In this document: positions 2,222 to 42,094 of the stretch, one piece after another
How the letters are laid out: each line of letters begins with the position of its first letter
Numbering within the stretch: the first letter of the stretch is position 1
Assembly: GCA_963725235.1 (NCBI GenBank)
Contig: CAVRXN010000003.1
Span: 75,204-139,203, forward strand
Origin: an uncultured bacterium
GTDB lineage: Bacteria > Patescibacteriota > Minisyncoccia > UBA6257 > 2-01-FULL-56-20
Length of the DNA: 64,000 nucleotides
Direction: 5' to 3'
The notes under the pieces: model-generated
Database searches by the model: none
What the model saw: only the letters and a program-made list of their open reading frames with translations
What the model was told of the DNA's origin: nothing
Made by a program: the position numbers and the translations under genes

Positions 2222-5200
2222 CTACGGCAGCTGCGGAATCGGAAGATTGAGCGACGAGCACATGATCAAGTTGATCCAGCGCTGGGTCGTCTTATAGACA
2301 TACTCCGTCGGCGTATACTCCGTCGGTAAGCCATAATTCAACCATGGCCGAAGCACTTCAATGTGGTACTTCACCTGGAACTGATCCACTGCCGCGATAG
2401 TCTCTGGACCATAGTAGCCGGTAATCGGTAAGGTTGTTCCCAAATTCATGTTCAAGAACGTCTGCAATTTATCCACTTCCGCAGGACTGTTGAGGTCTTT
2501 GCGAATCGGATGGATATACTGGTCGAGATAGATGCCGCAGCTCGCCGATGCGCCGAGGACTTGGCCTCCGCCATTTCCTCCGCCACCGCCTGAGCCACCG
2601 CCTCCACCGACCGTCGTACTGCCTCCACCACCCCCTCCGCCTCCACCGCCACCTCCACCGTTCGAACCGCCAACCGTAATGGTCGCGCTCGCGGTATTGT
2701 TACCGGAAAGCGGATCATTTACCAATGCTGTATTCTCGCCAACCGTCGCGGTGTTCGTGATGACATCGCCGATCGGATCGGATGAGTTAACGGTCGCCGT
2801 AATGACGAGCGTCGGGTTTGCATTCGGAGCAACATTGCCGAGCGTCCACGTTCCCGTGGTGCTGGCATATGTTCCCGCCGAAGAGCTCGCCGAAACAAAG
2901 GTCACGCCAGCAGGTAAGGTATCGGTCGCCACTACGCCCAGTGAAGAGTTCGGGCCGATGGCCTGAATCGTCAATGTGTAATGGATCGTATCGCCAGGAT
3001 TCGGTGTCGCGTTATCTACTGACTTCGTAATGCCAAGTTCGGCAGTCGGGAATCCACCGCCCCCACCTCCACCGCCCCCACCACCGCCTCCGCCGCCACA
3101 ATTGCTCGTGCAAGGCGCCGGCTGGACATTGATGGAAACAGAAGAAGAAGTGACCGAGAGATTCGTCTTGACGAGCGAACTCAGCTGCGAAACCGTAGCC
3201 GTGTTCGTAATCGTCTGGCCGTCATACGCAGAACTTACCGTCGCCGCGAGAGTTAACGTCGCCGTTGCATTCGGTGAGAGTGTTCCGATTGTCCAGTTAC
3301 CTGATGACATATCGTACATGACTCCATCCGAAGTCGTGGCGGAAACTAAGCTCAAGCCCAAGGGTAATTGATCCTGCACGTTAACGAACGTCGAAGTCGC
3401 CGGACCAAGCGCGGTAACGGTAACCGTATAGTTTACCGTATCGCCGCCGGCCGGATTCGCGTTATCAACGGTCTTTGCGATCGTGATATCCGCGTCGGTT
3501 GACGGGGTCGTTGTCGTCGTCGATGACGCGAGAGTGAAAATCACTGAACACGTCATGTTCGCCGAAAGCGTTCCCGAACAACCGCTCGACGTCGCCACCG
3601 AATAATTCGGCGCGGTCGTCGTCGCCGTCAACGCATACCGATCATTCGTCGGAAGGACGAAGGTCGAGCTGCCATTGCCGATCGAGGTTGCCTGCGTCGT
3701 TGACGCAGTCGGACCAAGGTCCGCAACCGAAATCGCAGCCGTGTCGCTCGCGTTCAAGCCGCTAACGTTTACCATCAGCGTGCTCGTCGCAGGCGTTGGC
3801 GTACCACTACCACCGCCACAATTCGACGTACAACCCGTCGTCTGCACCGTAATCGGCACCGAAGAAGAGTTGTTGCCCAAATTGTTATCGGAGGAAGAAG
3901 CTGATTCGCCAACGATCGCCGTGTTCGTGATCACTTGTCCGACCGTGTCGGACGAGTTGACGAGCGCCGCGATATTCAACGTTGCCGTCGAACTGGCCGA
4001 CAGATCGCCGATCGTCCACGTTCCCGTGGTCGTTGCATAACTGCCAACCGATGCCGTTGCATTCTCGAACGTAAGTCCGGAAGGCAACGTATCGGTCGCA
4101 ACAACGCCGGTCGACGTCGCCGGGCCAAGAGCTGAAACTGTTAACGTATAGTTAACCGTATCGCCTACGACCGGCGTCGAATTGTCAACTGTCTTCGTGA
4201 TCGAAAGATCAGCCGAAGGAGTCGAGGTCGAAACGCCCGTACACAACGGAGCTGAACTAAATGCATACTTGAGTACAAACGGGACGTTCGGATACCCATA
4301 CGGATTGCTCTCCAACAGCGTCGCCGGAGCTTCGCCGTAATAGGCATCGACTTGCGCCATGCATGATGGCAAAGCGACCGTCAACGTCTGTGTCGAACTC
4401 GCCGCAACCGAAGATGATGCCACGCTGAAGAGTTGTTGGCTGGAAAGCCAATTGGCAGCTCCTCGCGGAACAAACATTTTGTAGGCAGCCAAGCTGATCG
4501 GCGCCGTACAGCTCGTGTGGTTCGTCAACGTGAATGATGCCGTGGTTGAAGCCAACGAAACATTCGCAAAGCTGATCGAACCGCTCGCAACCGCCGCCTC
4601 AAAAGCGCTCGCGGAAAGCGTGCACGGAGTCGAAGTCGGCGTGGTCGTCGCCGTCGTTCCCAAGAATTGGTTGAGGACGACGAGCGTGCGATCGGGGCGC
4701 GTCGTAAGAAGTTGGATGTCGCCATCCGCATTCAAGTTGCGCGCCGCATCGTTCGACGAAGTGCTATCGAACAGCTGTCCACTGTACGAATAAACATCCG
4801 AAGTCGTGCTCGCAGCGATCGTATCCTGGTCATTATACTGCGGCGTCGCCCATTCGCTCGAAGAGCTCGTGATCGATTCCTGCCCATAGTAATAATGCCC
4901 AATCGCGAGATTGCTGTATGTCATACACTGCGCGTTATTCGTCGAAGAGCCAAACAGTTTGGCATTAAACGCCAACGGTGTGGTGAACGTACTTGTCGGA
5001 AGCGTACCGATAGCGAGCGGTGTCGAAGATGGTACCGAAGAAATTCCCGGGACCATAAAGGTATTCCCCGGAAATGCCGATCCATCAACGATCGTGCCAC
5101 TCGCGTTTTCGATCACTTTGCAAATTGTGATCGAACCGTTATTCACGGGTGGTACGTTTGGCTGCACGGTAATCGAAACGCTCGATGAATTATTCGAAAG

Positions 5201-6106
5201 ATTCGAATCAGTCGTCGAAGCGCTTTCCGCCACCGTCGCGGTATTCGTGATCGTCGTACTCGCAGTTCCGGAGTTAACCGTTGCCGCGATATCGAGGATC
5301 GCTTTCGAACTGACGCCCAAATCGCCGATCGTCCACACGCCAGTCGAACTAACGTACGAACCATCAGTCGAAGTCGCCGAAACGAACGTAACGCCCGAGG
5401 GCAAAACATCCGTCGCAACAACGCCAGTCGAAGTCGCCGGGCCGAGAGCTGAAACTGTTAACGTGTAGTTAACCGTTTCACCAACAGACGGCGTAGAATC
5501 ATCGACCGTTTTCACGATCGAAATATCCGCAGACGAAATCGTCGATGTCGGCGTCGACGTAGACATCTGGCAAAGATGGCCCGACGTAAATGTCGAGTCA
5601 ATCAGATAAGGCACCGTCAATACATCCGACGGCGTAACCGCATCGCTCCCGAATGAGAGCGGCGCATTCCCGTACCAGACATCAACCTGCGCTTTGCACG
5701 AAGGCAGTGCGACGGAAAATTCCTGATGGCTATCCGGAGCAATCAAAGAAGATGTCGCGTCGACAATCTGCTGAGTTGAAAGCCAACCGGCAGACGGCTG
5801 ATCGATGAAAATCTTATACGATGACATGCTGACCGGAACGCTGCATTGTGTAGTATTATTCACCCGAAACTTGGCAATGCCAGGATTCGAAAGATTAATG
5901 CCAGTAATGCCAAACGTAATCGAACCGTTCTGGACCGCAGCAACGTAATCGGAAACCGACAGCGTGCACGGCGCGACCGTCGTCGAGGTCGTCGACGTCG
6001 CAGTCGATGTCGCATCAGCGTGCGCAAGCGGCACCATGCCACCCGCCGCAACCGCAATTGCGAGACCAACAAAAACTAAAACTAGCCCAAAGTAAAACTT
6101 TTTCAT
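2222..6106 (-). CDS. giant secreted surface protein with DUF11 repeats, poly-Gly linkers and a C-terminal peptidoglycan-binding domain
   Basis: 1294-aa ORF with a signal peptide (MKKFYFGLVLVFVGLAIAVAA). At least four DUF11-type repeats (VNYTLTV.ALGPATSTGVVATD.LPSG.TFVSA...G.WTIG.L...NNSSSV.ITVQ). A duplicated Cys-containing N-terminal module (CTLSVSDYVAAVQNGSITF / CTLSASAFEAAVASGSISF). C-terminal PG_binding_1-like motif (GYYGPETIAAVDQFQ). Confidence 0.85.
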   Translation of the reverse strand: MKKFYFGLVLVFVGLAIAVAAGGMVPLAHADATSTATSTTSTTVAPCTLSVSDYVAAVQNGSITFGITGINLSNPGIAKFRVNNTTQCSVPVSMSSYKIFIDQPSAGWLSTQQIVDATSSLIAPDSHQEFSVALPSCKAQVDVWYGNAPLSFGSDAVTPSDVLTVPYLIDSTFTSGHLCQMSTSTPTSTISSADISIVKTVDDSTPSVGETVNYTLTVSALGPATSTGVVATDVLPSGVTFVSATSTDGSYVSSTGVWTIGDLGVSSKAILDIAATVNSGTASTTITNTATVAESASTTDSNLSNNSSSVSITVQPNVPPVNNGSITICKVIENASGTIVDGSAFPGNTFMVPGISSVPSSTPLAIGTLPTSTFTTPLAFNAKLFGSSTNNAQCMTYSNLAIGHYYYGQESITSSSSEWATPQYNDQDTIAASTTSDVYSYSGQLFDSTSSNDAARNLNADGDIQLLTTRPDRTLVVLNQFLGTTATTTPTSTPCTLSASAFEAAVASGSISFANVSLASTTASFTLTNHTSCTAPISLAAYKMFVPRGAANWLSSQQLFSVASSSVAASSTQTLTVALPSCMAQVDAYYGEAPATLLESNPYGYPNVPFVLKYAFSSAPLCTGVSTSTPSADLSITKTVDNSTPVVGDTVNYTLTVSALGPATSTGVVATDTLPSGLTFENATASVGSYATTTGTWTIGDLSASSTATLNIAALVNSSDTVGQVITNTAIVGESASSSDNNLGNNSSSVPITVQTTGCTSNCGGGSGTPTPATSTLMVNVSGLNASDTAAISVADLGPTASTTQATSIGNGSSTFVLPTNDRYALTATTTAPNYSVATSSGCSGTLSANMTCSVIFTLASSTTTTTPSTDADITIAKTVDNANPAGGDTVNYTVTVTALGPATSTFVNVQDQLPLGLSLVSATTSDGVMYDMSSGNWTIGTLSPNATATLTLAATVSSAYDGQTITNTATVSQLSSLVKTNLSVTSSSVSINVQPAPCTSNCGGGGGGGGGGGGGGGFPTAELGITKSVDNATPNPGDTIHYTLTIQAIGPNSSLGVVATDTLPAGVTFVSASSSAGTYASTTGTWTLGNVAPNANPTLVITATVNSSDPIGDVITNTATVGENTALVNDPLSGNNTASATITVGGSNGGGGGGGGGGGGGSTTVGGGGGSGGGGGNGGGQVLGASASCGIYLDQYIHPIRKDLNSPAEVDKLQTFLNMNLGTTLPITGYYGPETIAAVDQFQVKYHIEVLRPWLNYGLPTEYTPTEYVYKTTQRWINLIMCSSLNLPIPQLP
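2563..2672 (-). repeat. low-complexity Gly-coding tract (GGN repeats)
   Basis: Encodes GGSNGGGGGGGGGGGGGSTTVGGGGGSGGGGGNGGG inside the giant ORF. Appears as a poly-Pro shadow ORF on the + strand. Confidence 0.85.
3054..3098 (-). repeat. low-complexity Gly15-coding tract
   Basis: Encodes CGGGGGGGGGGGGGGGF between two DUF11 repeats. Confidence 0.85.
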
Positions 6107-6309
6107 TATTTTCTTATATTTATTTTTCGGCCTTTTAAACTATTTAATTGTTAAAAGGACCCAAAAATATGGTTTTCAAGGAGCTAAAATACCCCCTTCT
6201 TTTACCACGAATGGCGGAAAATAGCAAGGGCTACGAATCGACAATACCTCACAATGCTAAATACCGTATTGCACAAAAAATTATTACGATTACAATGAAT
6301 CCATCGTTC

Positions 6310-6380
6310 GCGGGTATGGTTCAGTGGTAGAACGCGACCTTCCCAAGGTTGAGATAGGGGTCCGATTCCCCTTACCCGCT
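6310..6380 (+). tRNA. tRNA-Gly (anticodon CCC)
   Basis: 71-nt cloverleaf read by hand: acceptor GCGGGTA/TACCCGC, D arm GTTC-AGTGGTA-GAAC, anticodon loop TTCCCAA, T arm AGGGG-TCCGATT-CCCCT. No encoded CCA. Confidence 0.9.
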
Positions 6381-6383
6381 CAT

Positions 6384-6459
6384 CCAAAAGAAAAGCTGCA
6401 GGAAAAAGACGAAGAGGCATCAGAATGCATTCGCCTTTTTCCTGCAGCTTTTCTTTTGG
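6384..6459. repeat. perfect 25-bp inverted repeat with a 26-nt loop
   Basis: CCAAAAGAAAAGCTGCAGGAAAAAG (6384-6408) is exactly complementary to CTTTTTCCTGCAGCTTTTCTTTTGG (6435-6459). Starts 4 nt after the tRNA-Gly gene. Confidence 0.9.
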
Positions 6460-6498
6460 ACTCAGTTGGATGACGGGAATCGGACAAGGAAAGGGGTC

Positions 6499-6593
6499 GG
6501 GGAAACGATAGTTTCCCCGTGTAGGAGGGTCGCGCATTCCGCGCGACAGTGCGGAACCGAGGGTTCCGCAGGAGCGAAGCCGGTCTCACCGGC
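6499..6593. other. block of four consecutive perfect GC-rich hairpins (possible structured RNA or element remnant)
   Basis: GGGGAAAC-GATA-GTTTCCCC (6499-6518). GTCGCGC-ATTCC-GCGCGAC (6529-6547). GCGGAACC-GAG-GGTTCCGC (6551-6569). GCCGGT-CTC-ACCGGC (6579-6593). Confidence 0.5.
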
Positions 6594-6602
6594 GAAGCGA
6601 CG

Positions 6603-6624
6603 TCTGATTCCCCTTACCCGCTCA
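6603..6624 (+). repeat. direct repeat of the tRNA-Gly 3' end (att-like)
   Basis: TCTGATTCCCCTTACCCGCTCA matches TCCGATTCCCCTTACCCGCTCA at 6361-6382 in 21 of 22 positions. It lacks the 5' T-stem partner, so it is a fragment and not a second tRNA. Confidence 0.85.
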
Positions 6625-6726
6625 GATGATCAAGAAATATTGAGATAAAATATTTAATTTGATTTTTGTTTGACTAAGTCAATTTGAAGTGATAATCTAC
6701 CAAACGGCACAGAAAGGAATTAAGTT

Positions 6727-6969
6727 ATGAGTATCACAAAGCAAGATGAAGTGACATTCGGAGAAATCCAGAAGGGTTCCAAATTTGTGCTGCCAGATCC
6801 TCTGCCACCTGACTGCGGTAAATTCATGGCATATTGGGTCTATGAAAAGGCGCTGCCCACGCACGCCATTATCATCGGCGTCAAGCCTAACGCTCCCCGA
6901 TCAGCACAGCAATGCATTGGTGAACATCGCTTCTTCCAACTGGATACTGAAGTGATCCTTCAAGGATAA
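6727..6969 (+). CDS. hypothetical protein (80 aa)
   Basis: ORF with RBS-like AAAGGAA upstream, a TTGACT...TAATCT promoter-like pair, and a GC hairpin plus T-run downstream (about 7010-7045). No homology recognised. Confidence 0.5.
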   Translation: MSITKQDEVTFGEIQKGSKFVLPDPLPPDCGKFMAYWVYEKALPTHAIIIGVKPNAPRSAQQCIGEHRFFQLDTEVILQG

Positions 6970-7137
6970 TCGAAATCTGGAAAGAATGGAGAAATAATTA
7001 AGCCGATCACGGCGGCCTGCCCAACCAGCGGCCGCCTTTTTTATTTTCGATGTACCTAACGAAACGCCTGCAAGCAAAAAGAGCGCCCCGGTCGGAACTG
7101 GGCGGCTCTTCGCCTTTTTCTTATTATCGATATTGTT

Positions 7138-7217
7138 CCGGCAAGAGAGAAGGTAGCAAAAAAACCGAGTCGGTTCTGACCGCTTCTCGGTTTTTTTGCT
7201 ACCTTCTCTTTTGCCGG
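7138..7217. terminator. dispersed hairpin element, copy 1 (long-stem bidirectional terminator abutting the fusA stop)
   Basis: Core A7-CCGAGTCGGTTCTGACCGCTTCTCGG-T7 (7158-7197). It is flanked by 20-nt complementary arms CCGGCAAGAGAGAAGGTAGC / GCTACCTTCTCTTTTGCCGG. Confidence 0.8.
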
Positions 7218-9356
7218 TTACCGCTTCTTCCCTTCTATAATCAGCTGCGCCACGTTGTTCGGCGCCGGCTCATAGTGATCAAATTCCATCGTAAATGAAC
7301 CGCGGCCCTGCGACATCGAACGGAGCTCCGTTGCGTAACCGAACAGTTCGGACAGCGGGATCTTCGCGTTAACGACTTTGAGACCCGGACGGTCGTCCAT
7401 CGATTCGATGCGGCCGCGCTTCGAGTTCACGTTGCCCGTCACCTCGCCCATGAAGTTGTCCGGGACGATGACCTGAATTTTCATGATCGGTTCGAGAATC
7501 ACCGGCTTCGCGCGCTTCGCGGCTTCCTGGAACGCCATCGAACCCGCGATCTTGAACGCCGCTTCGGATGAGTCGACTTCGTGGAACGAACCATCGTAGA
7601 GCGTCACTTCGACATCGACGACCGGATAGCCGGCGAGAATACCTTTGTCGAGCGCTTCTTTCACGCCCTTCTCGGTGGGGTCGATAAATTCTTTCGGGAT
7701 CGCGCCGCCTTTGATTTCGTCGAGGAACACGAATCCCGCACCGCGCTCGAGCGGCTTCACGCGCAGCCAGACATGGCCATACTGACCGCGGCCGCCGGAC
7801 TGCTTGATATATTTGCCTTCGGCTTCGGCTTCGCCGCATGATCGTTTCTTTGTACGCAACCTGCGGCCGGCCGACATTCGCGTCGACGTTGAATTCGCGC
7901 TTCATGCGGTCAACGATAATTTCCAAGTGCAGTTCGCCCATGCCGGAGATGATCGTCTCGCCCGTTTCGTTATCGCCCGCCACGCGGAACGTCGGATCTT
8001 CTTCGGCAAGACGATGCAAGCGCCGTACCCATTTTTTCCTGGTCGGCTTTCGTTTTCGGTTCGATGCGCAAGCCGATGACCGGTTCAGGGAATGTGATCT
8101 TTTCGAGAATGATCGGCGTGATCCGGATCGCAGAGCGTATCGCCGGTCGTCGTCTCTTTCAAGCCGACGATCGCCGCGATTTCGCCCGCGTAGATCTCTT
8201 CCACTTCTTCGCGCTGGTTGGCGTGCATGCCGAACGATGCGGCCGACGCGCTCCTGCACGCCTTTCGTCGAATTATAAATATATGAACCGCGTTTCAAGA
8301 CGCCGGAGTAAGCGCGGAAGAACGCCAAGTTGCCGACGAACGGGTCGGTTGCGATCTTGAATGCGAGGCCGGCGAACGGTTCGTCGTCGCTCGCGTGGCG
8401 CAACACTTCGGCGCCCGTTTTCTCGATCGTGCGCCCTTGACCGGCGGCAAATCGAGCGGCGACGGCAAGTATTCAACGACGGCGTCGAGCATGAACTGCA
8501 CGCCTTTGTTTTTGAGCGCCGAACCGCACAAAACCGGAACGATCGTGTTCGCGATGACCGCTTTGCGAAGCGTCCTCTGCAGGTCGTCGAGTCGAGATCT
8601 CTTTGCCATCGAGATACTCCGACATCACCGTCGTCGTCGTTCTCGGCAATTTTTTCGATGAGATCATGGCGCGCCTTTTCAACTTCCGCTTTCATATCCT
8701 CCGGAATCGGAATCTCGATGATCTTTTCGCCATGCTCGCCCTCAAAACTGTATGCTTTGTTTTCGAGCAAGCGCGACGACGCCTTTGAAATCGGACTTCC
8801 GTGCCGATCGGCAGCTGGATCGGAATCGCGTTCGGCGTCAGGCGGTCAATGATCGACTGGAAGCTCTTCTCGAAGCTCGCGCCGCATGCGGTCAAGTTTA
8901 TTGATAAAACAAATGCGCGGCACTTTATAATCGTCCGCATAGCGCCAGTTCGTTTCCGACTGCGGTTCGACGCCGGCGACGCCGTCGAAGACGACGACCG
9001 CGCCGTCGAGAACGCGCAGCGAGCGCTTCACTTCGACCGTGAAGTCGATGTGGCCCGGCGTGTCGATCAAGTTGATCTGATGTTCGTGCTTCTTGTGCTC
9101 GGCCGGCTCGCGCCGGCATATTCGTCGGCGTCCAGAACGCCGTCGTCGCGGCGCTCGTGATCGTGATGCCGCGCTCGCGCTCCTGTTCCATCCAGTCCAT
9201 GACCGTGTCGCCCGTGTGCACTTCGCCGATCTTGTGCGAAACGCCGGTATAAAAAAGCACCCGCTCGCTGACGGTCGTCTTGCCGGCATCAATGTGCGCG
9301 ATGATGCCGATGTTCCGAATTTTTTCGATAGGATAAGCTCGACCCATAATTTTCAT
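7218..9356 (-). pseudogene. fusA: elongation factor G, reading frame broken by many frameshifts
   Basis: EF-G segments are spread over at least 7 ORFs in different frames. N-terminus: [25 protein letters not shown]...[19 protein letters not shown]. Middle: [48 protein letters not shown]-terminus: 219 aa, GGRGQYGHV...MEFDHYEP. Confidence 0.9.
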
Positions 9357-9384
9357 GATGCGCCGGCGCGGCGCAATGGAAGTA

Positions 9385-9413
9385 AGATTAGCATAGGTTG
9401 CGGGAGGGTGCAA
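9385..9413 (-). promoter_or_regulatory. sigma70-like promoter upstream of fusA
   Basis: On the minus strand, TTGCAC, 17 nt, TAATCT, about 30 nt upstream of the fusA start. Confidence 0.4.
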
Positions 9414-9502
9414 ATCATTGATGCCAGTGACTTGACGACTATCTTCGACATGATAAGATGGAGTTACAACGGCTTCGGCCTCGACGGTTGACAATGGACT
9501 CC

Positions 9503-9530
9503 CAAATCCCCTCTCGACAGAGGGGATTTG
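9503..9530 (-). terminator. hairpin terminator downstream of the 300-aa orphan gene
   Basis: AAATCCCCTCT-loop-AGAGGGGATTT palindrome just after the stop at 9542. Confidence 0.5.
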
Positions 9531-9541
9531 CTTTTCTGGCG

Positions 9542-10444
9542 TTATTCTGCGAAAGGAAGAGGAATTTGCCGACCCGCCTTCGTATGGCCTATTACTTTTT
9601 TAATAAAGTATTCCGCTCTGATACCTTCCGGAATAGAATATTGCCTCGTTAAAAGCGTCGTGGCCAAGATATCGTCTTTGGCAAAATATTCTTCATTTGT
9701 GGAAATTTTATTCAAAAACTCCTGATCCAATATAGTTGCGAAGAAAGTAGAATTGCCATCGTAAAAGCGCCATTTATTATCTTCCCGAAAAGAAACACTC
9801 ACGATTTGAAGCTTAGTTTCGTGCTCATTTTCTGAAATGAGCGTTTCGGTGACGTCGGGTACGGTAAAATATTCTGACTCTACCTTGGTAATTGTTTCTT
9901 TTTGCCCTCGGCCAGAAAACGTAACTTCATTAACGCCATCCTTTTCCAGCGGCTTTTTGATAATCAGTTCCAAGGATTTACGAACCTTAAAATTACCAAA
10001 CAGCTTGATAATATTTTCAGGGACTTCAAGAATTTCATCATCCCCTTCAAGCTCTATTCTCACCCTGCCAACCTCGAACTTAGTAATACTTTTTATTTTG
10101 CGATTTCGAAGATGCTTGATAAATTCAATAACTGAATCAGACGAGGTCTTTAAGAAGCCTACCAAGGTGATCAGATTTACGCCCGCATTAATACCAGATC
10201 CTGAAAGTGCAGCAAATAAGCCCGCAACGGTATTTTGGATAAAATTGAAATCTACGCCAAATGAACCTTCTGAAAAGGCTTTAATATTAACTGCGATTTT
10301 CGACTGGTTCCCGTAAAAGAGACTATTTGCCTCCTCCAAAAGCTCTCCTACTGCAAGCAAAGCTGGGGCAAGCTCTTTAACATCCATTTCGTGAGCATCC
10401 AAAGCTGGACCATCATATAAAATTTTAAAACTTGTTGCTTCCAT
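9542..10444 (-). CDS. hypothetical protein (300 aa), AT-rich, inserted between rpsG and fusA
   Basis: Long uninterrupted ORF, visibly AT-richer than its flanks, with no TM or signal peptide. No family recognised. Confidence 0.6.
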
Positions 10445-10646
10445 ATAATATAATTATACCAGAAGCATCATTAAAAAAATCTAAAGATCATCTTTAAGAT
10501 TTTTTAATCTCCGCGGTGCTCATCAACACCAACCAACGCGTAACCTTCCGCCACCTCGCCTCGTTCTAGGAAAGGCCCTAACCCAGTCGCCCTAGTTGTT
10601 TTCAGCGTTAAGGGGGAGGAGGAGTAATTCGTGCTAAAATTAATGT

Positions 10647-10892
10647 ATGGAAGCATTTTGGGGCTGGATGCGACTGGTAGCAATTATTATCATCTTTGGG
10701 GCTGTCCTCAGTTTATTTAATCTTCTCCGTCCCGGGATTTGGATCGACCGACAAATTGGCCAAGACGCCCAAGATCCTAAGGTTAAGAATTTCTTCAATT
10801 TTAATTGGCGCCTTGCCATTGCGATGCCAATACTAGTTTTGGTAGCTGCAGTATTGTTTTTCGTGATTGCTTATTGGCTCGGACCGCATTAG
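10647..10892 (+). CDS. small membrane protein (81 aa, 2 TM helices)
   Basis: Two hydrophobic helices (LVAIIIIFGAVLSLFNLL, AMPILVLVAAVLFFVIAYWL). RBS-like GGGGGAGGAGGAG upstream. Confidence 0.5.
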   Translation: MEAFWGWMRLVAIIIIFGAVLSLFNLLRPGIWIDRQIGQDAQDPKVKNFFNFNWRLAIAMPILVLVAAVLFFVIAYWLGPH

Positions 10893-10912
10893 AAAATTAA
10901 AAAGTAGGATAC

Positions 10913-10943
10913 AAAAATGCCGCAGAGATCTCTGCGGCATTTT
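10913..10943. terminator. bidirectional terminator between the 81-aa gene and rpsG
   Basis: AAAAATGCCGCAGAGATCTCTGCGGCATTTT palindrome flanked by A- and T-runs. Confidence 0.75.
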
Positions 10944-10953
10944 CGAATACTCC

Positions 10954-11421
10954 CTACCTCGCAAAATGCGCGAACGCACGGTTGGCTTCCGCCATTCTAT
11001 GCGTGTCCTGCTTCTTCTTGATCGCATTACCTTCGTTCTTCGAAGCGGCGATGAGTTCTTCGGCGAGCTTGTCGGCCATGCCTTTGCCTTTCTTGGCGCG
11101 AGCCGCACCGATGATCCAACGGACAGAAAGCGTGAACTTCCGCTCGGGGCGGACTTCCATAGGAACCTGATAGTTCGCACCGCCAACGCGTTTGGATTTC
11201 ACCTCGAGCATCGGTGAAACATTCTCCAACGCCTTCTCGAAAACCGTCATCGGATCCTCCTTCGTCTGCGCCTTGATCTTATCGAATGCACTATAAACCA
11301 ATCGCTCCGCCGTCGATTTCTTTCCGTCTTTCATGACGTAATTAATAAAGCGACCCAATTCAACGCGTCCATGGACAACGTCAGCGGTATAATATTTTTT
11401 ATAAACTCGTTTCTTGCGCAT
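10954..11421 (-). CDS. rpsG: 30S ribosomal protein S7
   Basis: 155 aa with typical S7 sequence (KSKRVGGANYQVPMEVRPER...RMAEANRAFAHF). Confidence 0.95.
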   Translation of the reverse strand: MRKKRVYKKYYTADVVHGRVELGRFINYVMKDGKKSTAERLVYSAFDKIKAQTKEDPMTVFEKALENVSPMLEVKSKRVGGANYQVPMEVRPERKFTLSVRWIIGAARAKKGKGMADKLAEELIAASKNEGNAIKKKQDTHRMAEANRAFAHFAR

Positions 11422-11432
11422 TTTAATGATTT

Positions 11433-11846
11433 TTATTTCTTCCCTGCCTTCGCGCCATATTTCGAGCGCTGTTGCTTGCGGCCTTCGACGCCCGTCGTAT
11501 CCAAAACGCCGCGGACGACGTGATAACGAACGCCCGGCAAGTCCTTTACGCGACCGCCGCGAATGACGACGATAGAGTGTTCCTGCAATGCGTGGCCTTC
11601 GCCCGGGATGTAAGCCGTAACTTCCATACCGTTCGTCAAACGGACACGCGCAACTTTACGCAAAGCCGAGTTCGGCTTTTTCGGAGTCGTCGTGAACACC
11701 TTAACGCACACCCCCCGCTTGAACGGCGACGCCGAGTCAACCGGCCGATTTTTGATCGTGTTGAAATAGTACGACAACGCCGGCGACTTCGTCTTCGCTT
11801 TATTCGGCTGGCGCCCTTTCTTGATCAATTGTCGGATAGTTGGCAT
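11433..11846 (-). CDS. rpsL: 30S ribosomal protein S12
   Basis: 137 aa: [12 protein letters not shown]...[36 protein letters not shown]. Confidence 0.97.
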
Positions 11847-11904
11847 GTCTATATAACCAAAGGATTCTAAAGCAATCTGACCCGAAAGTCAAACCGCACG
11901 CGAC

Positions 11905-12819
11905 TTATTTCTTTTTCTCCACCTGGCCGCCCTGCCCACTAACCGCAACGAGCAACGGACTCGCGATGAAGATGGACGAGTAGATACCCGTGATGACTCC
12001 GACGAGCAGCGTCAGGACGAAATACTGCAGGTCGGCTGGACCGGCGAAATACAGCGCGAGCAAAACGAGAATCAGAGTTAATGAAGTATTAATAGATCGC
12101 GCCATCGTCTGGTTGACGCTCGCGTTCACGATATCGGCGAACGACGCCTTGCCACGCTCGCGCAATAAATTCTCGCGGATGCGGTCGAACACGACGATCG
12201 TGTCGTGAACTGAAAAACCCATGACGACGAGAAGCGCGACGATAAAATCGCTATCGATTTGCACGTGCGCGAAGTGGCCGAGGATCGCGAGCAAGCCGGC
12301 CGGAATCGAGACGTCGTGGAACAACGTCAGTAACGTTATCCAGCCGTATTTCCAGGAACTGACTGGACGCGACGATTTGCGGAACGCGTACGCGATATAT
12401 AAAGAGATCGCGATAATGACGAGAACGAGCGCGATAAGCGAACTGTCGAGAACCGAAGCGCCAACCGACGGACTAATCGACTGGAAACTCAGCTCGTCGA
12501 AGGATGGCCATTGCGCTTTCAAGAGCGAAAGGTCGGCCTGATGCGTCGGTTCATCGATCGTTCCGAAGGTCGCTAGGAACGTCTGATGCTGCGCATCATA
12601 CGTAACCGTTGCGCCGTTCAGCTTTAAATTATCGGTGAAAAAATTCTGTACGCTGACAAGCGACGGACTGTCCGCAGCAGCGGAAAATTCCCACAGCGTG
12701 CCGCCGGTAAACTGCGCGCTTTCCTGGAAACGCCAGACACCAATTGAAATTAACGCGATGCCGACAAGGACGATTGAGATGGTGAACCAGATTTTTTTGT
12801 GGCCGACGATGTTAAGCAT
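11905..12819 (-). CDS. secF: protein translocase subunit SecF
   Basis: 304 aa, multi-TM, with SecF-type motifs (HDTIVVFDRIRENL). Overlaps the secD stop by 8 nt. Confidence 0.9.
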   Translation of the reverse strand: MLNIVGHKKIWFTISIVLVGIALISIGVWRFQESAQFTGGTLWEFSAAADSPSLVSVQNFFTDNLKLNGATVTYDAQHQTFLATFGTIDEPTHQADLSLLKAQWPSFDELSFQSISPSVGASVLDSSLIALVLVIIAISLYIAYAFRKSSRPVSSWKYGWITLLTLFHDVSIPAGLLAILGHFAHVQIDSDFIVALLVVMGFSVHDTIVVFDRIRENLLRERGKASFADIVNASVNQTMARSINTSLTLILVLLALYFAGPADLQYFVLTLLVGVITGIYSSIFIASPLLVAVSGQGGQVEKKK

Positions 12820-14089
12820 GTTGGGTTTGAATTTTATCTTTCAGGAAGATGCGCAGGAACAAACGTGTCGTCGTGATAGCGCTGAACAAGCTAACGAGTA
12901 CGCCAAGCAGGAGCGTTACAGCAAAACCTTGCACGAAACTCGACGTAAAGAAGTACAAAATCAACGCGGTTATGATCGTCGATGCGTTCGAATCGCGGAT
13001 CGACGGCCATGCGCGGCGGAAACCTTCCTCGACCGCGGACGCGCGCGGCAGCCCACGTTTTAATTCTTCTTTAATACGTTCGAAAATGAGAATATTGGCG
13101 TCGACAGCCATACCGATGGTCAGGATGAAACCGGCGAGGCCGGCGAGTGACAAGGTGATGCCGACCACCTTAAACAACCCAAGAGACAAAGCAATATAGA
13201 TGACCAACGACAGCGCCGCAAAAACACCGAGGCGGCCATAATAGAAAAGCATGAAGAGAATGACGAGCAGGGTGCCGATGATGCCGGCGACGACGACTGC
13301 CGCTAAAGAATTCGAACCGAGCGTCGGACTGACAGTCTGCTGGTTAATCAACGTTATCGGGGCAGGCAACGCGCCGGCATTAAACTGCTCGGCGATCTGG
13401 CTCGCGACACTGAACGTAATATCCGGACCGCTGATCTGCGCCTGGCCATTCGAGATCTCCTGGTCAACCGTCGGACAGCTTTCGGCCGGCGAACTCGGGA
13501 TGATAAAATTGTTGTCGACAAAGATACAAACCTGCTTGTTGACGTCCGCCTTCGTCATTTCATCAAAGATCTGCGCACCGTCGGTATTTAACGTAAAGTT
13601 AATGACATAACCGCCCGCACCGGACGGGTTCGCACCAACCGTCGCGCCGGTCAAATACTGGCCAGTCAGGTTCGTCGGAACATATTGCGGCGTCGTGCTC
13701 GAACCGCTCGTCTGCACTTCGACGAAATCGAGTGTCGGCGTCTGGCCGATCTGTGCAACCGCCTCCGCCGTGTCCTTCACGCCCGGCAAATCGACATCGA
13801 GCTCGGCCGTATTCCCCGACTGCGCAGTATACACCTGCGGTTCACCGACACCAAACAGGTTAACGCGCTTTTCGATAACATCACGGAGGCCATCGACCAC
13901 CGAACCCTGATTCGTTGCCGAAACCTGCGACAGGTCGATCGAATAAACAAGATGCGCACCACCTTCGAGATCGAGACCGAGAGCCCACGGCCGCGCACTC
14001 GCGCCCCACCCACGCGGATAGACAAAAATCGCGGCGATAATCGCCACAACGATGATGACCGTCAGCCATAGGCCCGGATGCTTTCTCAT
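12812..14089 (-). CDS. secD: protein translocase subunit SecD
   Basis: 425 aa. N-terminal TM, periplasmic domain, and C-terminal 6-TM domain (GLAGFILTIGMAVDANILIFERIKEE). Confidence 0.9.
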   Translation of the reverse strand: MRKHPGLWLTVIIVVAIIAAIFVYPRGWGASARPWALGLDLEGGAHLVYSIDLSQVSATNQGSVVDGLRDVIEKRVNLFGVGEPQVYTAQSGNTAELDVDLPGVKDTAEAVAQIGQTPTLDFVEVQTSGSSTTPQYVPTNLTGQYLTGATVGANPSGAGGYVINFTLNTDGAQIFDEMTKADVNKQVCIFVDNNFIIPSSPAESCPTVDQEISNGQAQISGPDITFSVASQIAEQFNAGALPAPITLINQQTVSPTLGSNSLAAVVVAGIIGTLLVILFMLFYYGRLGVFAALSLVIYIALSLGLFKVVGITLSLAGLAGFILTIGMAVDANILIFERIKEELKRGLPRASAVEEGFRRAWPSIRDSNASTIITALILYFFTSSFVQGFAVTLLLGVLVSLFSAITTTRLFLRIFLKDKIQTQHA

Positions 14090-14161
14090 TGGAAATTATT
14101 GTAGCTGGTCGGGGCGAAAAAATCAAATCGCTCGAGGCGCCTTGCGCGACGCCCCGTCGTC

Positions 14162-14569
14162 TCAAATGCCATACTGCGACAGCCCCGCCGTGCTCGTCTG
14201 CGCCTGGATAAATTGATTAATCCAAACGCCAAAAATCCAAAACGTGACGACACTCGAAATAATAAGGAGCGCGAGCGCAATCCAGCCGATCTGCTGCGCC
14301 TTCGAATCGGGCGATTTGATATATTTAATCCCCTGCCAATAGCTGACGGCGAGATAACAGATGATCGGCAGAACGATACTGAAACCGTAGAGCAAAATCT
14401 GCGCGACGATGTCGGTCGACAAGCCCGGCTCATTCAACTTCTTGCCGCAATTCGGACAAAAATGGTACGTCGGCAAAACCGGCTGATAGCATTGCGGACA
14501 GAGCATCGTCACCGGCGGTGTCGGCACAGCCGACGCCGGGATGGGCGCTTGGGCTGGATTTTCGTCCAT
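14162..14569 (-). CDS. zinc-ribbon membrane protein
   Basis: 135 aa. CPQC...CPNCG zinc-ribbon motif followed by 3 TM helices. Confidence 0.6.
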   Translation of the reverse strand: MDENPAQAPIPASAVPTPPVTMLCPQCYQPVLPTYHFCPNCGKKLNEPGLSTDIVAQILLYGFSIVLPIICYLAVSYWQGIKYIKSPDSKAQQIGWIALALLIISSVVTFWIFGVWINQFIQAQTSTAGLSQYGI

Positions 14570-14601
14570 GTTCTTATTCTACCATTTAGAAAAAACTAAT
14601 G

Positions 14602-14674
14602 TGCCCCCACCTGGGCTCGAACCAGGAACCGCTTCCTTAAAAGGGAATTGCTCTACCAGTTGAGCTATAGGGGC
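14602..14674 (-). tRNA. tRNA-Lys (anticodon UUU)
   Basis: Reverse complement is GCCCCTATAGCTCAACTGGTAGAGCAATTCCCTTTTAAGGAAGCGGTTCCTGGTTCGAGCCCAGGTGGGGGCA. Anticodon loop CTTTTAA. Confidence 0.9.
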
Positions 14675-14767
14675 ATCTATCTTCAACCCGAATTATCTGT
14701 CATTATAAAAGAATTTCAAAAAAAATTCAAGCAGAAAATTTCACCGATCCGCGCCGCGCCAACACAC

Positions 14768-15364
14768 TCACTCCCCCTCATACTTCCTCATCATGCGGCG
14801 ATAGATCCGGAACAGCACGAACATAATAACCGCGACGGCGATGATGGCGGCGATAAGCTCGAGCAAGTTCGAGAAGCTGTCCCAGTAATTGCCGACGGCA
14901 TAGCCAATCGCGAGCGCGGCGAAGGGTTCGATGAGATTTCCCAAAAAGTCATTTATTAAAAATATATTAAACGGAACGCCGACGAGGCCGGCGAGAAACG
15001 CAGCGATCGGCGAGAGCGAGCCGGCGAAGCGCGTCATGAAAACCGTGATCGCGGCATCGGTCCGCAATTCTTCTCGAAGCTGGTTATAAAATTTCAGTTT
15101 GTGCAAGCGTAACAATCGCACGATGCCATCACCCCAATAGCGCGTGATGCCGTAGTCCGTCAAATCGCCGGCGACATTCGCGACAACCGCCGTTGCGAGC
15201 ACACCCCAAAAATTAAAATAGCCCTGACTCGCGAATGCGCCGACGGCAAGCAACATCGCATTGCCCGGCAGCGGCAAAATGACCGCCGCGGAATAAACAA
15301 CAACGGCGATCGTCCAGTATCTATAGAGCAGGACGTATGAGAGCAGCTCGTTCAGGATGTTCAT
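14768..15364 (-). CDS. DedA/VTT-domain family membrane protein
   Basis: 198 aa, multi-TM, DedA-like (RFAGSLSPIAAFLAGLVGVPF). Confidence 0.7.
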   Translation of the reverse strand: MNILNELLSYVLLYRYWTIAVVVYSAAVILPLPGNAMLLAVGAFASQGYFNFWGVLATAVVANVAGDLTDYGITRYWGDGIVRLLRLHKLKFYNQLREELRTDAAITVFMTRFAGSLSPIAAFLAGLVGVPFNIFLINDFLGNLIEPFAALAIGYAVGNYWDSFSNLLELIAAIIAVAVIMFVLFRIYRRMMRKYEGE

Positions 15365-25669: not shown

Positions 25670-26593
25670 ATGAACAAAACAATGGCAAGAACAGCGTTTA
25701 TCGTAGGCACGGCAGTCGTCGGTGCATTTTTGATTGTCACGGGCATCGCGAGCGCAGCGACGCTTGGCGTTGACGTTTCAGCGCAGGCAAATGTCGGCGC
25801 CAACGCCCACTTCCCGGGCAGCAACGGCGGTGCGCGTCCCCCGATGATGGGCGGCGGCATCTTCGGCACGGTCTCGGCAATCAACGGCACGACGCTGACG
25901 ATAACATCGAAGGGCTTCGCTGGCTTCGGCCGCCCGTCCTCGACGACTGGCTCAGCACCAACAACAGCCCCAGCCCCAACCACATATACGGTTAATGCGT
26001 CGAACGCGACCGTTACAAAAGGTGGTGCATCGAGCACGCTCTCAAGCGTCGCCGTCGGCGACACGGTAGTCGTGCGCGGCACGGTCAACGGAACGAGCAT
26101 AACGGCAACAGCCATTATGGATGGCGTCGTACCGGACGGAGCAAATCCCGGCGGCCCGATGATGCGCGGCGGCTTCGGTCGCGGACCGAATGGTTCGTCG
26201 ACCGGCATGTGGTCCGCATCTTCGACGGCACTCTTCCAGGGCAACGGTGAACCCGTCGTCGGTGGAACCGTGACGGCGATCAACGGATCGACAGTGACCA
26301 TTACGAACAAGAGCAACGTCACGTACACGATCGACGGGTCGGCCGCGGTCGTCGTCAAAGGCAATGTCTCGTCTTCGCTCAGCGCGGTGGCCGTCAATGA
26401 CAATGTCTTAGTGCAGGGCAACGTCAGCGGCACGAGCGTGACCGCGTCGACGATCCTTGACCAGGGTGCCGCAACTTCGGCAGGCACGAGCAGCGCGGGT
26501 CCGGGCAATTCGACGACTGCACACTTAAACGTTGTCGCCAAAATGTTCGGCGGCATCGGCGCATTCTTCCAGCATCTCTTCGGCTTCTTCTAA
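25670..26593 (+). CDS. secreted repeat protein (DUF5666-like repeats)
   Basis: 307 aa with a signal peptide. Three repeats of G.V.AINGTT.TIT.K...YTV.AS.A.V.KG...S.LS.VAVGD.V.V.G.V.GTS.TA..I. Confidence 0.75.
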   Translation: MNKTMARTAFIVGTAVVGAFLIVTGIASAATLGVDVSAQANVGANAHFPGSNGGARPPMMGGGIFGTVSAINGTTLTITSKGFAGFGRPSSTTGSAPTTAPAPTTYTVNASNATVTKGGASSTLSSVAVGDTVVVRGTVNGTSITATAIMDGVVPDGANPGGPMMRGGFGRGPNGSSTGMWSASSTALFQGNGEPVVGGTVTAINGSTVTITNKSNVTYTIDGSAAVVVKGNVSSSLSAVAVNDNVLVQGNVSGTSVTASTILDQGAATSAGTSSAGPGNSTTAHLNVVAKMFGGIGAFFQHLFGFF

Positions 26594-26698
26594 GCCCGAC
26601 GAAGGCACGATGAGGTAACAAAAAAACCGAGTCGGTTCTTACCGCTTCTCGGTTTTTTTGTTACCTCATCGTGCCTCACGTTCGACTAGAAGAAGCCG
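26581..26698. terminator. dispersed hairpin element, copy 2, with roughly 48-nt arms overlapping both convergent gene ends
   Basis: Core A7-CCGAGTCGGTTCTTACCGCTTCTCGG-T7 (26620-26659). Arms CGGCTTCTTCTA...GGCACGATGAGGTAAC / GTTACCTCATCGTGCC...TAGAAGAAGCCG. Confidence 0.8.
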
Positions 26699-27913
26699 AT
26701 TATATTTCGCCGTCCGCTCACCGCGCGCCGGAGCGCCGAGCTTTAGCCCATCGGCACCAACGCCGTAGGCAAAGTCCGCGATGAAATCATCGTTCGTCTC
26801 GCCGGAGCGATGTGACGCAACAACACCCCATCCATACCGGCGCGCAGCGCGAACCGCATCGAGTGCTTCCGAAACACTGCCGATCTGATTCGGTTTAATG
26901 ATGACGGCATTCACGCTCCCCTCCGCATGCGCCCGCTCCATCCGATGGACGTTCGTCGTAGTAAGATCGTCGCCCGTGATCCAAAATGGCGCAGCCTTTT
27001 TGCCGGTACGCGTCGCCACGCGGCGCGGCGCGGCACCATACTTCGCCGTAAATTTCGCGAACGCGGCAAAATCATTTTCCGGAAATGGGTCTTCGAGATA
27101 GATGAAGTCGTCGGCCTGAACCAACTTCGCATAGAGCGCCGGCATCGCGCCAAATCGCTCCTTCGCGATATCCGTCGCCGCCGCATCCATACCGAAATCG
27201 ACAACCTTCGACAATTTTAATTTTTTCGTAACCGCACGCAGCATCGTCAACGGTTCGAGGTTGTCGCGGAAATTCGGCGCAAAGCCGCCCTCATCGCCAA
27301 GGTTCGTCGCCTGTTTGCCAAGCCGTCGCTCGATCGTCATTTTCAGTTCATTATAAATTTGCACGCCGATCTCAACCGACTCCGCAAACGTTCGCGTTCG
27401 CGGAATGATGACGTATTCCTGGATATCAAGATTGCTGCCGCCATGCAAACCACCGTTGATAAGATTCATAAACAAACGCGGACGCGTGACCAAACGGCTT
27501 GATACAACCGGCATTCCATATACCTCGCGGATATATTTCCATAATGGAACATCGCGCGCCATCGCCGACGCACGCGCGAACGCAATCGAACAGGCAAGAA
27601 TCGCATTCGCACCGAGTCGCCGCTTATCCGCCGTCCCATCAAGTTTTATTAAAAAATCATCAAAAGCTTGTTGACTTTTGAACTCGGCACGAGCGGCCCG
27701 GCCGCCACCCCGAACAGCCGCCGCAATCCGCGTATTGATATTCCGAACCGCGACCGAAGCCGGCAATGCATGTGCTTCTGCCGCGCCCGTGCTCTTTCCC
27801 TCCGGAACCGACGCCGTCGCGCGAACGCCATTCGCCAGCTCGATTGTCGCTTCAACCGTCCACTCGGCCCGCGAATCGAGAATCGATCGCGCAGTCAGAG
27901 ATTTTATTTTCAT
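26666..27913 (-). CDS. eno: enolase
   Basis: 415 aa: ARSILDSRAEWTVEA...VPEGKSTGAAEA...IKPNQIGSVSEA...SHRSGETND. Confidence 0.93.
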   Translation of the reverse strand: MKIKSLTARSILDSRAEWTVEATIELANGVRATASVPEGKSTGAAEAHALPASVAVRNINTRIAAAVRGGGRAARAEFKSQQAFDDFLIKLDGTADKRRLGANAILACSIAFARASAMARDVPLWKYIREVYGMPVVSSRLVTRPRLFMNLINGGLHGGSNLDIQEYVIIPRTRTFAESVEIGVQIYNELKMTIERRLGKQATNLGDEGGFAPNFRDNLEPLTMLRAVTKKLKLSKVVDFGMDAAATDIAKERFGAMPALYAKLVQADDFIYLEDPFPENDFAAFAKFTAKYGAAPRRVATRTGKKAAPFWITGDDLTTTNVHRMERAHAEGSVNAVIIKPNQIGSVSEALDAVRAARRYGWGVVASHRSGETNDDFIADFAYGVGADGLKLGAPARGERTAKYNRLLLVEREAR

Positions 27914-33701: not shown

Positions 33702-33801
33702 CTGCGAGGATGGGATTCGAACCCATACTTTTTTCTTTCAGAATATTCTGCAGAGAAAAATACTCTGAAAGGAAAATGTGCTGCCATTACACTACTCCGC
33801 G
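33702..33801 (-). tRNA. aberrant tRNA-like gene with an extended (roughly 19-bp) anticodon arm
   Basis: Good T arm (ATGGG-TTCGAAT-CCCAT) and D arm (GTGT-AATGGCA-GCAC). The anticodon position holds TTTTC-CTTTCAGAGTATT-TTTCTCTGCAG-AATATTCTGAAAG-AAAA. Acceptor CGCGGAG/CCTCGCA pairs at only 5 of 7 positions. Confidence 0.45.
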
Positions 33802-41931: not shown

Positions 41932-41970
41932 GGAAACATAATAGCGCAAAAACTTGCGTTTGTCATGTCT

Positions 41971-42094
41971 GGCGCGACGGTGGAGTTGCAACAAGGAGCA
42001 CAGAAGCTAACAAAAAACCGAGTCGGTTCTGACCGCTTCTCGGTTTTTTTAGTTCTAGCTTTGCTGCCTACTGAAGTTCCACCGTCGCTCCTGC
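41971..42094. terminator. dispersed hairpin element, copy 3, downstream of rplL with an inverted rplL-3'-end fragment
   Basis: Core A6-CCGAGTCGGTTCTGACCGCTTCTCGG-T7 (42012-42050). Left flank GGCGCGACGGTGGAGTTGCAA (41971-91) mirrors the rplL end GGAGCGACGGTGGAACTTCAG (42071-91, minus strand). Confidence 0.75.

Follow-up and report, generated by a model that had tools for sequence, protein, structure and literature searches.

A family of long-armed terminator-like hairpins in one Paceibacteria lineage, with arms best explained by template switching

The 64-kb window (the whole stretch of DNA analyzed, 64,000 nt) carries four members of a small family of related hairpins which belongs to one Paceibacteria (CPR) lineage. 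We put at roughly 0.65 the probability that the whole explanation offered here is right, namely that the repeated unit is a bidirectional terminator, that its family is restricted to one lineage and has recently been copied between loci, and that its long arms were made by template switching and are not the ends of a transposon. The window belongs to a contig of 221 kb. The nearest GTDB representative is 68% identical in enolase, and the closest named enolase homologues come from Paceibacterota/Minisyncoccia MAGs.

The core pattern CCGAGTCGGTTCTKACCGCTTCTCGG matched the plus strand of the window exactly three times, at 7165-7190 (site 1), 26627-26652 (site 2), and 42018-42043 (site 3). No copy has a mismatch outside the K position, so that the sole substitution between the three cores is a G/T difference at core position 14, and the pattern had no match in 100 dinucleotide shuffles of the window (chance expectation 0). 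Runs of A7 and T7 border the first two cores, while the third lies between A6 and T7. An earlier note on this DNA had described a near-identical core which occurs three times between A6-7 and T7 runs, after fusA, eno, and rplL, with at most one substitution between copies. The pattern search and the Pfam-based gene context confirm this description, and the near-identity of the cores bears out the argument that independently evolved terminators cannot give three such sequences. The upstream genes had also been called highly expressed minus-strand genes, which is correct as to strand and position, while their high expression follows from gene identity only.

When the copies are aligned, the 26-nt core forms the center of a ~52-nt unit, GNTARC-A7-CCGAG-AAG-CGGT-NAGA-ACCG-A-CTCGG-T7-GYTANC. 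As RNA in the sense of the upstream gene, the core copies read A7 CCGAG AAG CGGT CAGA ACCG A CTCGG U7, and the anatomy is thus A7, a 5-bp stem, an AAG bulge, a 4-bp stem, an NAGA tetraloop, an A bulge, and U7. The hexamers which adjoin the A and T runs (GGTAGC, GGTAAC, GCTAAC) are akin between copies, and a purine-rich segment stands in the same register in non-orthologous arms (CAAAAGAGAAG at fusA, CAAAAGAAAAG at tRNA-Gly, and GAAAGAGAAG at rplL of the related contig L089). As the innermost 6 nt are akin from copy to copy and some of the ~15 nt beyond them recurs at other loci, these bases belong to the repeated unit, and the recurrence of the purine-rich segment at non-orthologous loci indicates that part of each arm is old, diverged family sequence which has been kept self-complementary. 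Unlike these family-derived inner parts, the outermost parts of the arms are local. The flanks had been claimed to be locus-specific and self-complementary within each locus. Self-complementarity was found throughout, with arms longer than first stated (up to 32-33 nt); locus specificity stands for the outer arms, which are local inverted duplications, but not for the related innermost 6 nt.

The hairpins at the three core sites fold at -60 to -88 kcal/mol (z -5 to -16). Axis-by-axis local alignment gave five hairpins in the window with scores of at least 16, four of them at 28-29, whereas none reached 16 in 12 dinucleotide shuffles of the window (best shuffle score 15). No Rfam family was found at the hairpin sites, and an Rfam search of the window returned tRNAs only.

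Member 1 is an 80-nt palindrome (7138-7217, minus strand) which starts at the first base past the stop codon (7218-7220) of fusA, encoding EF-G. Its 32-nt arms (7138-7169 and 7186-7217) are 97% complementary, its unit occupies 7152-7203, and it folds at -60.7 kcal/mol (z -11). The fusA gene (7218-9494, minus strand) is present as at least three ORFs in the assembly, most likely due to indel errors, and its EF-G domains IV and C end at 7218 according to Pfam. A genuinely split EF-G in the clade, where many homologues have 220-380 aa, was considered and rejected, as the short homologues come either from the ends of contigs or from a long-read contig rich in indels. The family hairpin is absent after the fusA stop codon in L090, L091, and L092, which are 92%, 87%, and 86% identical in an EF-G C-terminal fragment.

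Member 2 is a 120-nt palindrome (26580-26699, minus strand) which fills the gap between eno (26666-27913, minus strand) and a convergent DUF5666 gene (25670-26593, plus strand) and enters both coding ends. It consists of 29-nt perfect inner arms (26603-26631 and 26648-26676) and a co-axial 13-nt perfect outer pair (26580-26592 and 26687-26699), and its fold has an energy of -87.8 kcal/mol (z -16). The eno stop codon (26666-26668) and the terminal eno codons lie inside the palindrome, and the Pfam enolase domain ends at 26666. The inner arm holds the native eno codons ...E-A-R-stop, where relatives end in EARN-stop or EARS-stop. The idea that the element itself had built the eno C-terminus was dropped, as the alignment shows that ...KYNRLL...E-A-R is native.

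The outer arms of site 2 are the two native coding ends, mirrored on one symmetry axis. The left one is the conserved C-terminus of the DUF5666 protein (...LFGFF-stop, of which ...FGFF-stop lies in the arm), read from TTC GGC TTC TTC TAA, with a GGC codon which is GGA in relatives. The right one is the conserved ...NRLL region of eno (...NRLLL in the window), for which 11 of 11 relatives read KYNRLL[E/Q/A]I. The window and a sister strain have CGG CTT CTT CTA GTC, compared with CGG CTT TTG GAG ATC in the closest relatives. Relative to L005 and L065, the closest sequenced orthologues, TTG GAG has thus become CTT CTA, a change of five of six nucleotides which replaces Glu by Leu, and the CTA codon stands where all relatives have Glu, Gln, or Ala. 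The changed codons pair without a mismatch with the mirror-image stretch of the convergent DUF5666 end. On either side, the ten bases that separate the inner arm from the outer one lack complementarity, which a single clean extension event does not account for. A relative with 73% identity has no hairpin at its eno end, where eno runs directly into the next gene, while the eno-core junction of the window recurs in a strain whose enolase is 96% identical.

Member 3 (41971-42091, minus strand) follows rplL (42068-42436, minus strand, stop codon 42068-42070), which encodes ribosomal protein L7/L12 according to Pfam. It has imperfect inner arms (41995-42011 and 42051-42067) and 33-nt outer arms (41971-42003 and 42059-42091) with 73% complementarity. 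The right outer arm is the last eight rplL codons with the stop codon, and a decayed inverted copy of this stretch makes up the left one (24/33, p about 1e-8). Where the present rplL of the window has GAACTTCA, the left outer arm has GAGTTGCA, which is the rplL allele of three related contigs (L001, L087, and L088). This fit to the allele of other genomes indicates that the inverted copy is old.

The hairpin after rplL is ancestral, being orthologous in five genomes. L001 is a peat-metagenome contig with rplJ-rplL, in which rplL has 91-93% nucleotide identity and the core directly follows rplL. The core lies on the same strand as the gene and is therefore flipped relative to the window, and the arms differ in sequence from those in the window but are perfect over 28 nt. 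The contigs L087, L088, and L089 were obtained via close L12 homologues, and all three carry a hairpin of the same architecture after rplL. In L088 (64 bits with the family covariance model R1 described below), it reads GTGAG AAG CCGT CAGA ACGG A CTCAC, and its 35-nt arms take in the stop codon and the codon before it. In L089 (54.5 bits), it reads GTGAA GAG CCGT CAGA ACGG A TTCAC, with 34-nt perfect arms, and L087 has a degenerate version. R1 recovered the L087 hairpin too, as well as that of L001, the latter on the opposite strand. The search of relatives that had been suggested as a check has thus located the rplL hairpin in four further genomes, one of them with the flipped copy. A recombinant origin of site 3, in which the proximal arm would be of rplL type and the distal one of eno/fusA type, was rejected, as the distal arm aligns to that of L088 with three indels and is therefore orthologous; these indels may be assembly errors. 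The copies at eno and fusA, in contrast to the ancestral rplL copy, are recent lineage-specific gains, since related genomes are without them.

Covariance model R1, built from the ~52-nt unit, recovered the three minus-strand copies in the window at 84 (site 1), 84 (84.4; site 2), and 66 bits (site 3), and found a diverged fourth member after tRNA-Gly, at 38.8 bits (E about 9e-8) and solely in the sense of that gene. Member 4 (6360-6485, plus strand) follows the tRNA-Gly gene at 6310-6381. Its unit (6396-6447) reads AAAAAG-ACGAA-GAG-GCAT-CAGA-ATGC-A-TTCGC-CTTTTT, which as RNA corresponds to A5G ACGAA GAG GCAU CAGA AUGC A UUCGC CU5. The inner arms span 6383-6413 and 6430-6460. The outer arms are the 3' part of the tRNA gene (6360-6377) and its inverted copy 90 nt downstream (6468-6485), which match at 15 of 18 positions (p about 3e-7). 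The hairpin folds at -77 kcal/mol (z -9.9) and scores 66 bits with R2, a broader model built from eight sequences. R2 found no members beyond those of R1, and R1 had no match in 1.2 Mb of more distant Paceibacteria. The exact core had no match in 185,579 representative genomes and a single one in JGI metagenomes, in L001, which is the only exact match outside the window. A looser core gave no match in viral contigs, nor did the 80-nt element in phage and plasmid records.

The anatomy of the unit suggests that it acts as a bidirectional Rho-independent (intrinsic) terminator. A stable G+C-rich stem-loop is directly followed by T6-7 and lies just 3' of the gene end, with the hairpin of every copy starting no more than 33 nt ahead of the stop codon or tRNA end and no more than 1 nt past it. 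The folding energy is -10.4 kcal/mol for the bare core and -17.5 kcal/mol once A7 and U7 are included. Its A7...T7 mirror puts a U-tract 3' of the hairpin on both strands, it folds equally both ways (about -11 kcal/mol), and site 2 lies between convergent genes. The unit resembles known bidirectional intrinsic terminators in its hairpin of about -10 kcal/mol, its A6-7 before and U6-7 after the stem, and its location within ~20 nt of the stop codon. Unlike ordinary intrinsic terminators, it has the same hairpin sequence at unlinked genes and a conserved 3x1 internal loop in the stem, and the palindrome runs 20-45 nt past the A and U tracts into coding sequence. A simple consensus terminator scan of the window, which cannot model the bulged stem, gave 25 sites versus 27 expected.

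Other terminators of the window share the AACAAAAAA...TTTTTTGTT frame with the unit. A short bidirectional terminator (AAACAAAAATCCACTC-loop-GAGTGGATTTTTGTTT) at 46694-46730, which has no assigned strand, has orthologues in L087 and L089, and its 5-nt loop is inverted in the L089 orthologue. A giant hairpin with 34-nt arms and an unrelated core lies 3 nt past the EF-Tu stop codon (62662-62738, minus strand; -53.7 kcal/mol, z -9.8). It is not a family member, scoring merely 27 bits with R2, equally on both strands. As this tuf terminator is also long-armed with a different core, giant arms are not specific to the family core. Some other Paceibacteria are rich in giant hairpins of other kinds: one contig, L017, has five in 8 kb, and a 17-nt core is common to two of its loci and to an orthologous locus in L010, with compensating arms. 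Every giant hairpin of the window is located at a synteny break relative to related genomes (rplL|panD, eno|DUF5666, fusA|?, and tuf|orf232). This would fit palindromes that provoke rearrangements as well as palindromes that are themselves created by fold-back repair at the joints.

The long arms, which make palindromes of 80-125 nt, are best explained by template switching during replication, that is by quasi-palindrome correction and extension. In an alignment of eight family hairpins, pairing holds in 93.6% of the cells, and in 15 of the 22 pairs both sides have changed. Double changes occupy 36 cells, in contrast to 3 of 173 cells with G·U. None of 500 shuffles reached these pairing and double-change values, and shifting the 3' partners by 1-3 columns abolished the signal. 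Substitutions in the stems come in pairs, whereas the RAG bulge, the CAGA loop, and the A bulge are constant. At rplL, the arms (0-1 mismatch) are 28 nt long in L001, 35 nt in L088, and 34 nt in L089, each with a different sequence, and inverted copies of native gene ends are found among the arms at rplL, tRNA-Gly, and eno. Spacer inversions are seen in the core of L001 and in the loop of the 46694-46730 orthologue in L089; loop orientation in short-read assemblies rests on arm-spanning reads, and arms longer than the k-mer could be mis-resolved. Traces characteristic of template-switch products are thus present, namely arms that diverge yet stay complementary, clustered changes that create complementarity, and inversion of the spacer. 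The earlier proposal of template switching or fold-back synthesis for the flanks is borne out by the gene-end copies, the multinucleotide change in eno, the spacer inversion, and the strict Watson-Crick covariation.

These signatures are observed directly; that the mechanism behind them was template switching is suggested by analogy with published quasi-palindrome work. Quasi-palindrome template-switch mutation was reportedly described by Ripley in 1982 and pursued by the Lovett and Hazkani-Covo laboratories. Following the mechanism, the nascent strand would fold back or cross the fork and take one arm as template for the other, which would perfect the arms, lengthen them outward into adjoining sequence, and at times invert the asymmetric center. 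Template switching is known to homogenize arms, to expand them (from 5 to 16 bp in one event), and to invert spacers (PMC8604942, PMC5941160, PMC13100816). It is enriched in highly transcribed DNA (PMC3820800; Kim et al. 2013, as cited in PMC5941160). The hairpins described here resemble these cases in the perfection and expansion of arms, in spacer inversion, in clustered amino-acid-changing multinucleotide changes that create complementarity, and in the presumed link with highly transcribed DNA. They differ in scale, as the arms of non-coding inverted repeats in E. coli are under 20 bp (PMC5941160), whereas the present ones are perfect over 28-35 nt within palindromes of 80-125 nt. Moreover, the process here affects a repeat family with dispersed copies and reaches across the ends of two convergent coding sequences, which distinguishes it from known quasi-palindromes.

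The rplL core of the window differs from that of L088 at 6 of 26 positions, though rplL nucleotide identity is ~90%, whereas the three cores inside the window differ at no more than one position. Cores that are alike within a genome yet diverged between genomes point to recent copying or conversion between loci of the family, which we infer from these sequences. The AAGA loop variant of the eno copy in the window is the variant found in the rplL copy of L001. Orientation relative to the upstream gene is alike in seven of eight copies, the flipped one being that of L001. Together with the conserved unpaired bases, this makes some constraint on the center likely, and it hints at a functional or mechanistic constraint on orientation, which neutral template switching does not predict. 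Likewise, the bulges and the loop have never been "corrected" into a perfect palindrome, so that some selection or constraint on the center of the hairpin is likely.

With regard to how the family spreads, we favor ectopic template switching or gene conversion between its members. A non-autonomous transposon of REP/REPIN or MITE type, moved in trans by a RAYT, an IS200/IS605 TnpA, or another transposase with a gene outside the window, with the arms as TIRs and terminator activity as incidental, is unlikely in our view. Such an origin would fit the dispersed, near-identical extragenic palindromes at gene 3' ends, whose density (4 in 64 kb) is REP-like, and the lineage-specific gain of the fusA and eno copies. 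It would also fit the recurrence of CAAAAGAGAAG, CAAAAGAAAAG, and GAAAGAGAAG in the same register, which suggests that the copied unit is longer than the core, as well as the compensatory changes, which also occur in REPINs (PMC3116915). However, there are no direct target-site duplications at sites 1-3, where the outside flanks, where related, are inverted; the claim of the earlier note that target duplications of MITE type are lacking holds in this respect. No transposase, RAYT, or integrase was found among the ~70 ORFs of the window, and an autonomous insertion sequence with the same ends was found neither there nor in 1.2 Mb of relatives or public scans. The lack of matches in viral contigs, phage and plasmid records, and the 185,579 representative genomes also argues against a transposon. 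Even if one had been involved, template switching would still be required, since the outer arms are local gene sequence.

REPINs consist of two REP modules inverted around a less conserved spacer (PMC3116915), and they are associated with a GTAG/CGTC tag and a linked RAYT gene (PMC3116915, PMC3733652). The present family shares with REP, BIME, and REPIN sequences short extragenic hairpin-forming palindromes at gene 3' ends, compensatory changes, and homogeneity within the genome. Unlike a REPIN, with its conserved outer modules, it has a conserved center and variable arms, the reverse topology, and GTAG is found at site 1 only (GGTAGC), while other copies have GTAA, CTAA, or ATAA. As the tag is not conserved, the topology is reversed, and the window is without a RAYT, the REP/BIME-like assignment made earlier is not supported.

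Some further systems show similar geometry. Integron attC sites are imperfect palindromes directly after the stop codon, with extrahelical bases, in which the outer RYYYAAC/GTTRRRY boxes are conserved and the center varies. The family is like attC in being an imperfect palindrome with extrahelical bases right after a gene stop, but its center is conserved and the window is without a cassette array. An attC origin was discarded, as the outer boxes do not fit (AGGTAAC/GTTACCT) and no integrase is present among the window ORFs. In Neisseria and Pasteurellaceae, inverted pairs of DNA uptake sequences serve as terminators, and the family resembles these in having inverted pairs of a repeated sequence 3' of genes that form terminators. 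A DNA uptake sequence was likewise rejected: six of seven occurrences of the half-site AAAAACCGAG are arms of the three hairpins, and only one in 64 kb is solo.

Speculatively, the preferred template-switch explanation of the arms could be extended to the seeding of new loci, which would take place by the same event started ectopically from another family member. At a gene end, the nascent strand would jump ectopically to a resident hairpin and copy its center, then fold back, copy the local gene end in inverted form, and return to its own template. The unit would then be a self-copying terminator that is independent of any transposase, with the local palindrome and the bidirectional terminator installed in one event, a tentative proposal that we consider less likely than not. 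CPR genomes with reduced hairpin-processing and exonuclease functions would let such palindromes grow, rewrite C-termini, and mark rearrangement joints.

Selection at the RNA level could instead have kept the arms, if read-through 3' ends formed double-stranded hairpins that serve as RNase III sites or exonuclease barriers for abundant mRNAs and tRNA, and if the bulges and loop bound a protein. The hairpins follow rplL, eno, fusA, tuf, and a tRNA, their folded structures are very stable, and the shared orientation of seven of the eight copies and the conservation of the unpaired RAG, CAGA, and A while the stems vary would be expected under this explanation. Nevertheless, we regard it as quite improbable. 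The U7 directly after the inner hairpin would presumably put the distal arm past the expected 3' end, and G·U in 3 of 173 cells would be unusually little for RNA helices under selection. Site 1 has a single mismatch, A·C on the sense strand and G·U on the antisense strand, and this sense-strand A·C and the scarcity of G·U favor DNA-level copying over selection on RNA. In addition, the arms cost eno protein sequence, and the L001 copy exists in flipped form.

The window carries indel errors, as fusA, tuf, and PPDK each fall into several ORFs here, and the Illumina-based Logan contig L002, from a strain 99.4% identical to the window, has PPDK in one piece. The imperfections of site 3 and the homopolymer lengths may therefore in part be assembly errors in this indel-prone window. 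Three Logan contigs from two runs end inside or just past the core, right after eno and rplL, which is where a repeated palindrome makes a de Bruijn assembler stop, and the junctions are thereby independently confirmed. That assembly or amplification created the palindromes as artefacts, for instance through fold-back chimeras or nanopore errors, is hardly credible despite these indel errors, as short-read contigs from both runs reach the same junctions, JGI contigs from three other samples span perfect 28-35-nt arms at the orthologous rplL locus, and one core at three loci cannot come from chimeric reads.

The hairpins thus constitute a lineage-specific, concertedly evolving family of putative terminator hairpins, the arms of which probably come from a known mutational process at an unusual scale. 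They provide a natural case, by comparative genomics, in which template switching would have built 80-125-nt palindromes around a terminator and into two coding sequences, at the cost of a Glu to Leu change in the enolase at site 2. So far, most documented examples of the process have had arms below 20 bp. They also present a terminator hairpin as a dispersed, concertedly evolving repeat family in CPR, a group with scarcely described non-coding DNA. Such palindromes cause breaks in short-read assemblies, where they may also be resolved wrongly, and this bears on the quality of CPR MAGs. If spread indeed needs no transposase, regulatory hairpins would have a new way to colonize gene ends, and the process would be a plausible source of the rearrangement joints beside each such hairpin.

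Synteny with relatives was broken at every giant hairpin of the window (6486-7137, 26594-26665, 41995-42067 and 62568-62740). The downstream neighbour of rplL is panD-cofE in the window and in L088, an N_methyl gene in L089 and PQQ_2 in L087, these three being metagenome contigs that carry orthologues of the rplL hairpin; in the peat-metagenome contig L001, the neighbours are a small ORF and an inverted panD. The gene facing DUF5666 is eno in the window, whereas it is PemK in both L088 and L089. In L091, a relative lacking the family hairpin after fusA, rpsJ directly follows tuf; in the window, tuf is followed by a hairpin and a 232-aa ORF which had no family match.

Giant hairpins of other kinds occur in some other Paceibacteria. 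An 8-kb stretch of L017 (13363-19880), a contig of another Minisyncoccia MAG, contains five perfect hairpins whose arms measure 27-41 nt. None of the five has A/T tracts, and three overlap, or lie at most ~20 nt from, the stop codon that ends a long ORF upstream. The 17-nt centre TAGTGTTAAGAAACAAC is present at two of these loci in opposite DNA orientation and again at the orthologous locus of L010 (14338-14420), where the arms compensate. In L046, a contig of an unrelated MAG, palindromic repeats of one family (AGGATTTCAAGGAACTCGGTTCCTTGA..., GGCTGTTGAAGCTCGGTTTT...) are present in five copies over ~10 kb (5662-15266).

Further palindromes were seen in the window and in L092. In the window, one with 23-nt arms and zero spacer (10906-10951) lies 3 nt past the rpsG stop. 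rpsG and fusA are usual neighbours; in the window they are separated by a 300-aa ORF (9542-10444), for which no family match was found. Directly past the fusA stop of L092, another relative lacking the family hairpin there, lies a 26-nt inverted repeat (CCTCGAACCCTTTCTGTTTTTGAACC ... GGTTCAAAAACAGAAAGGGTTCGAG; 10709-10880) with a spacer of ~130 nt.

In the window, fusA (7218-9494), tuf (62741-63930) and PPDK (33839-36340) are each broken into several ORFs. L002, an Illumina-based contig from a strain that shares 99.4% identity with the window, has an unbroken PPDK (832 aa), and between L002 and the window there are 8 gap openings per 11 kb. It follows that the window is an assembly prone to indels, probably of long-read type, and that its homopolymer lengths are unreliable.

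PanD (aspartate decarboxylase) and an F420-0:gamma-glutamyl-ligase-like domain share a single minus-strand ORF (40510-41994), and this fusion of ~475-494 aa is kept in close relatives (L088 2256-3677; L089 7259-8680). Two adjacent adenylate-kinase-like genes in tandem downstream of secY (48013-49139) are likewise kept in L087 (1761-2915). A 1294-aa minus-strand ORF with four DUF11 repeats (2222-6106), followed by a short bidirectional terminator (2164-2195), probably encodes a surface protein. Finally, a minus-strand tRNA at 33702-33801 (Rfam, 44.6 bits), not called by ARAGORN, reads as tRNA-Glu(UUC) with ~31 nt inserted just 3' of the anticodon loop, and may be an example of a Paceibacteria tRNA that contains an intron.
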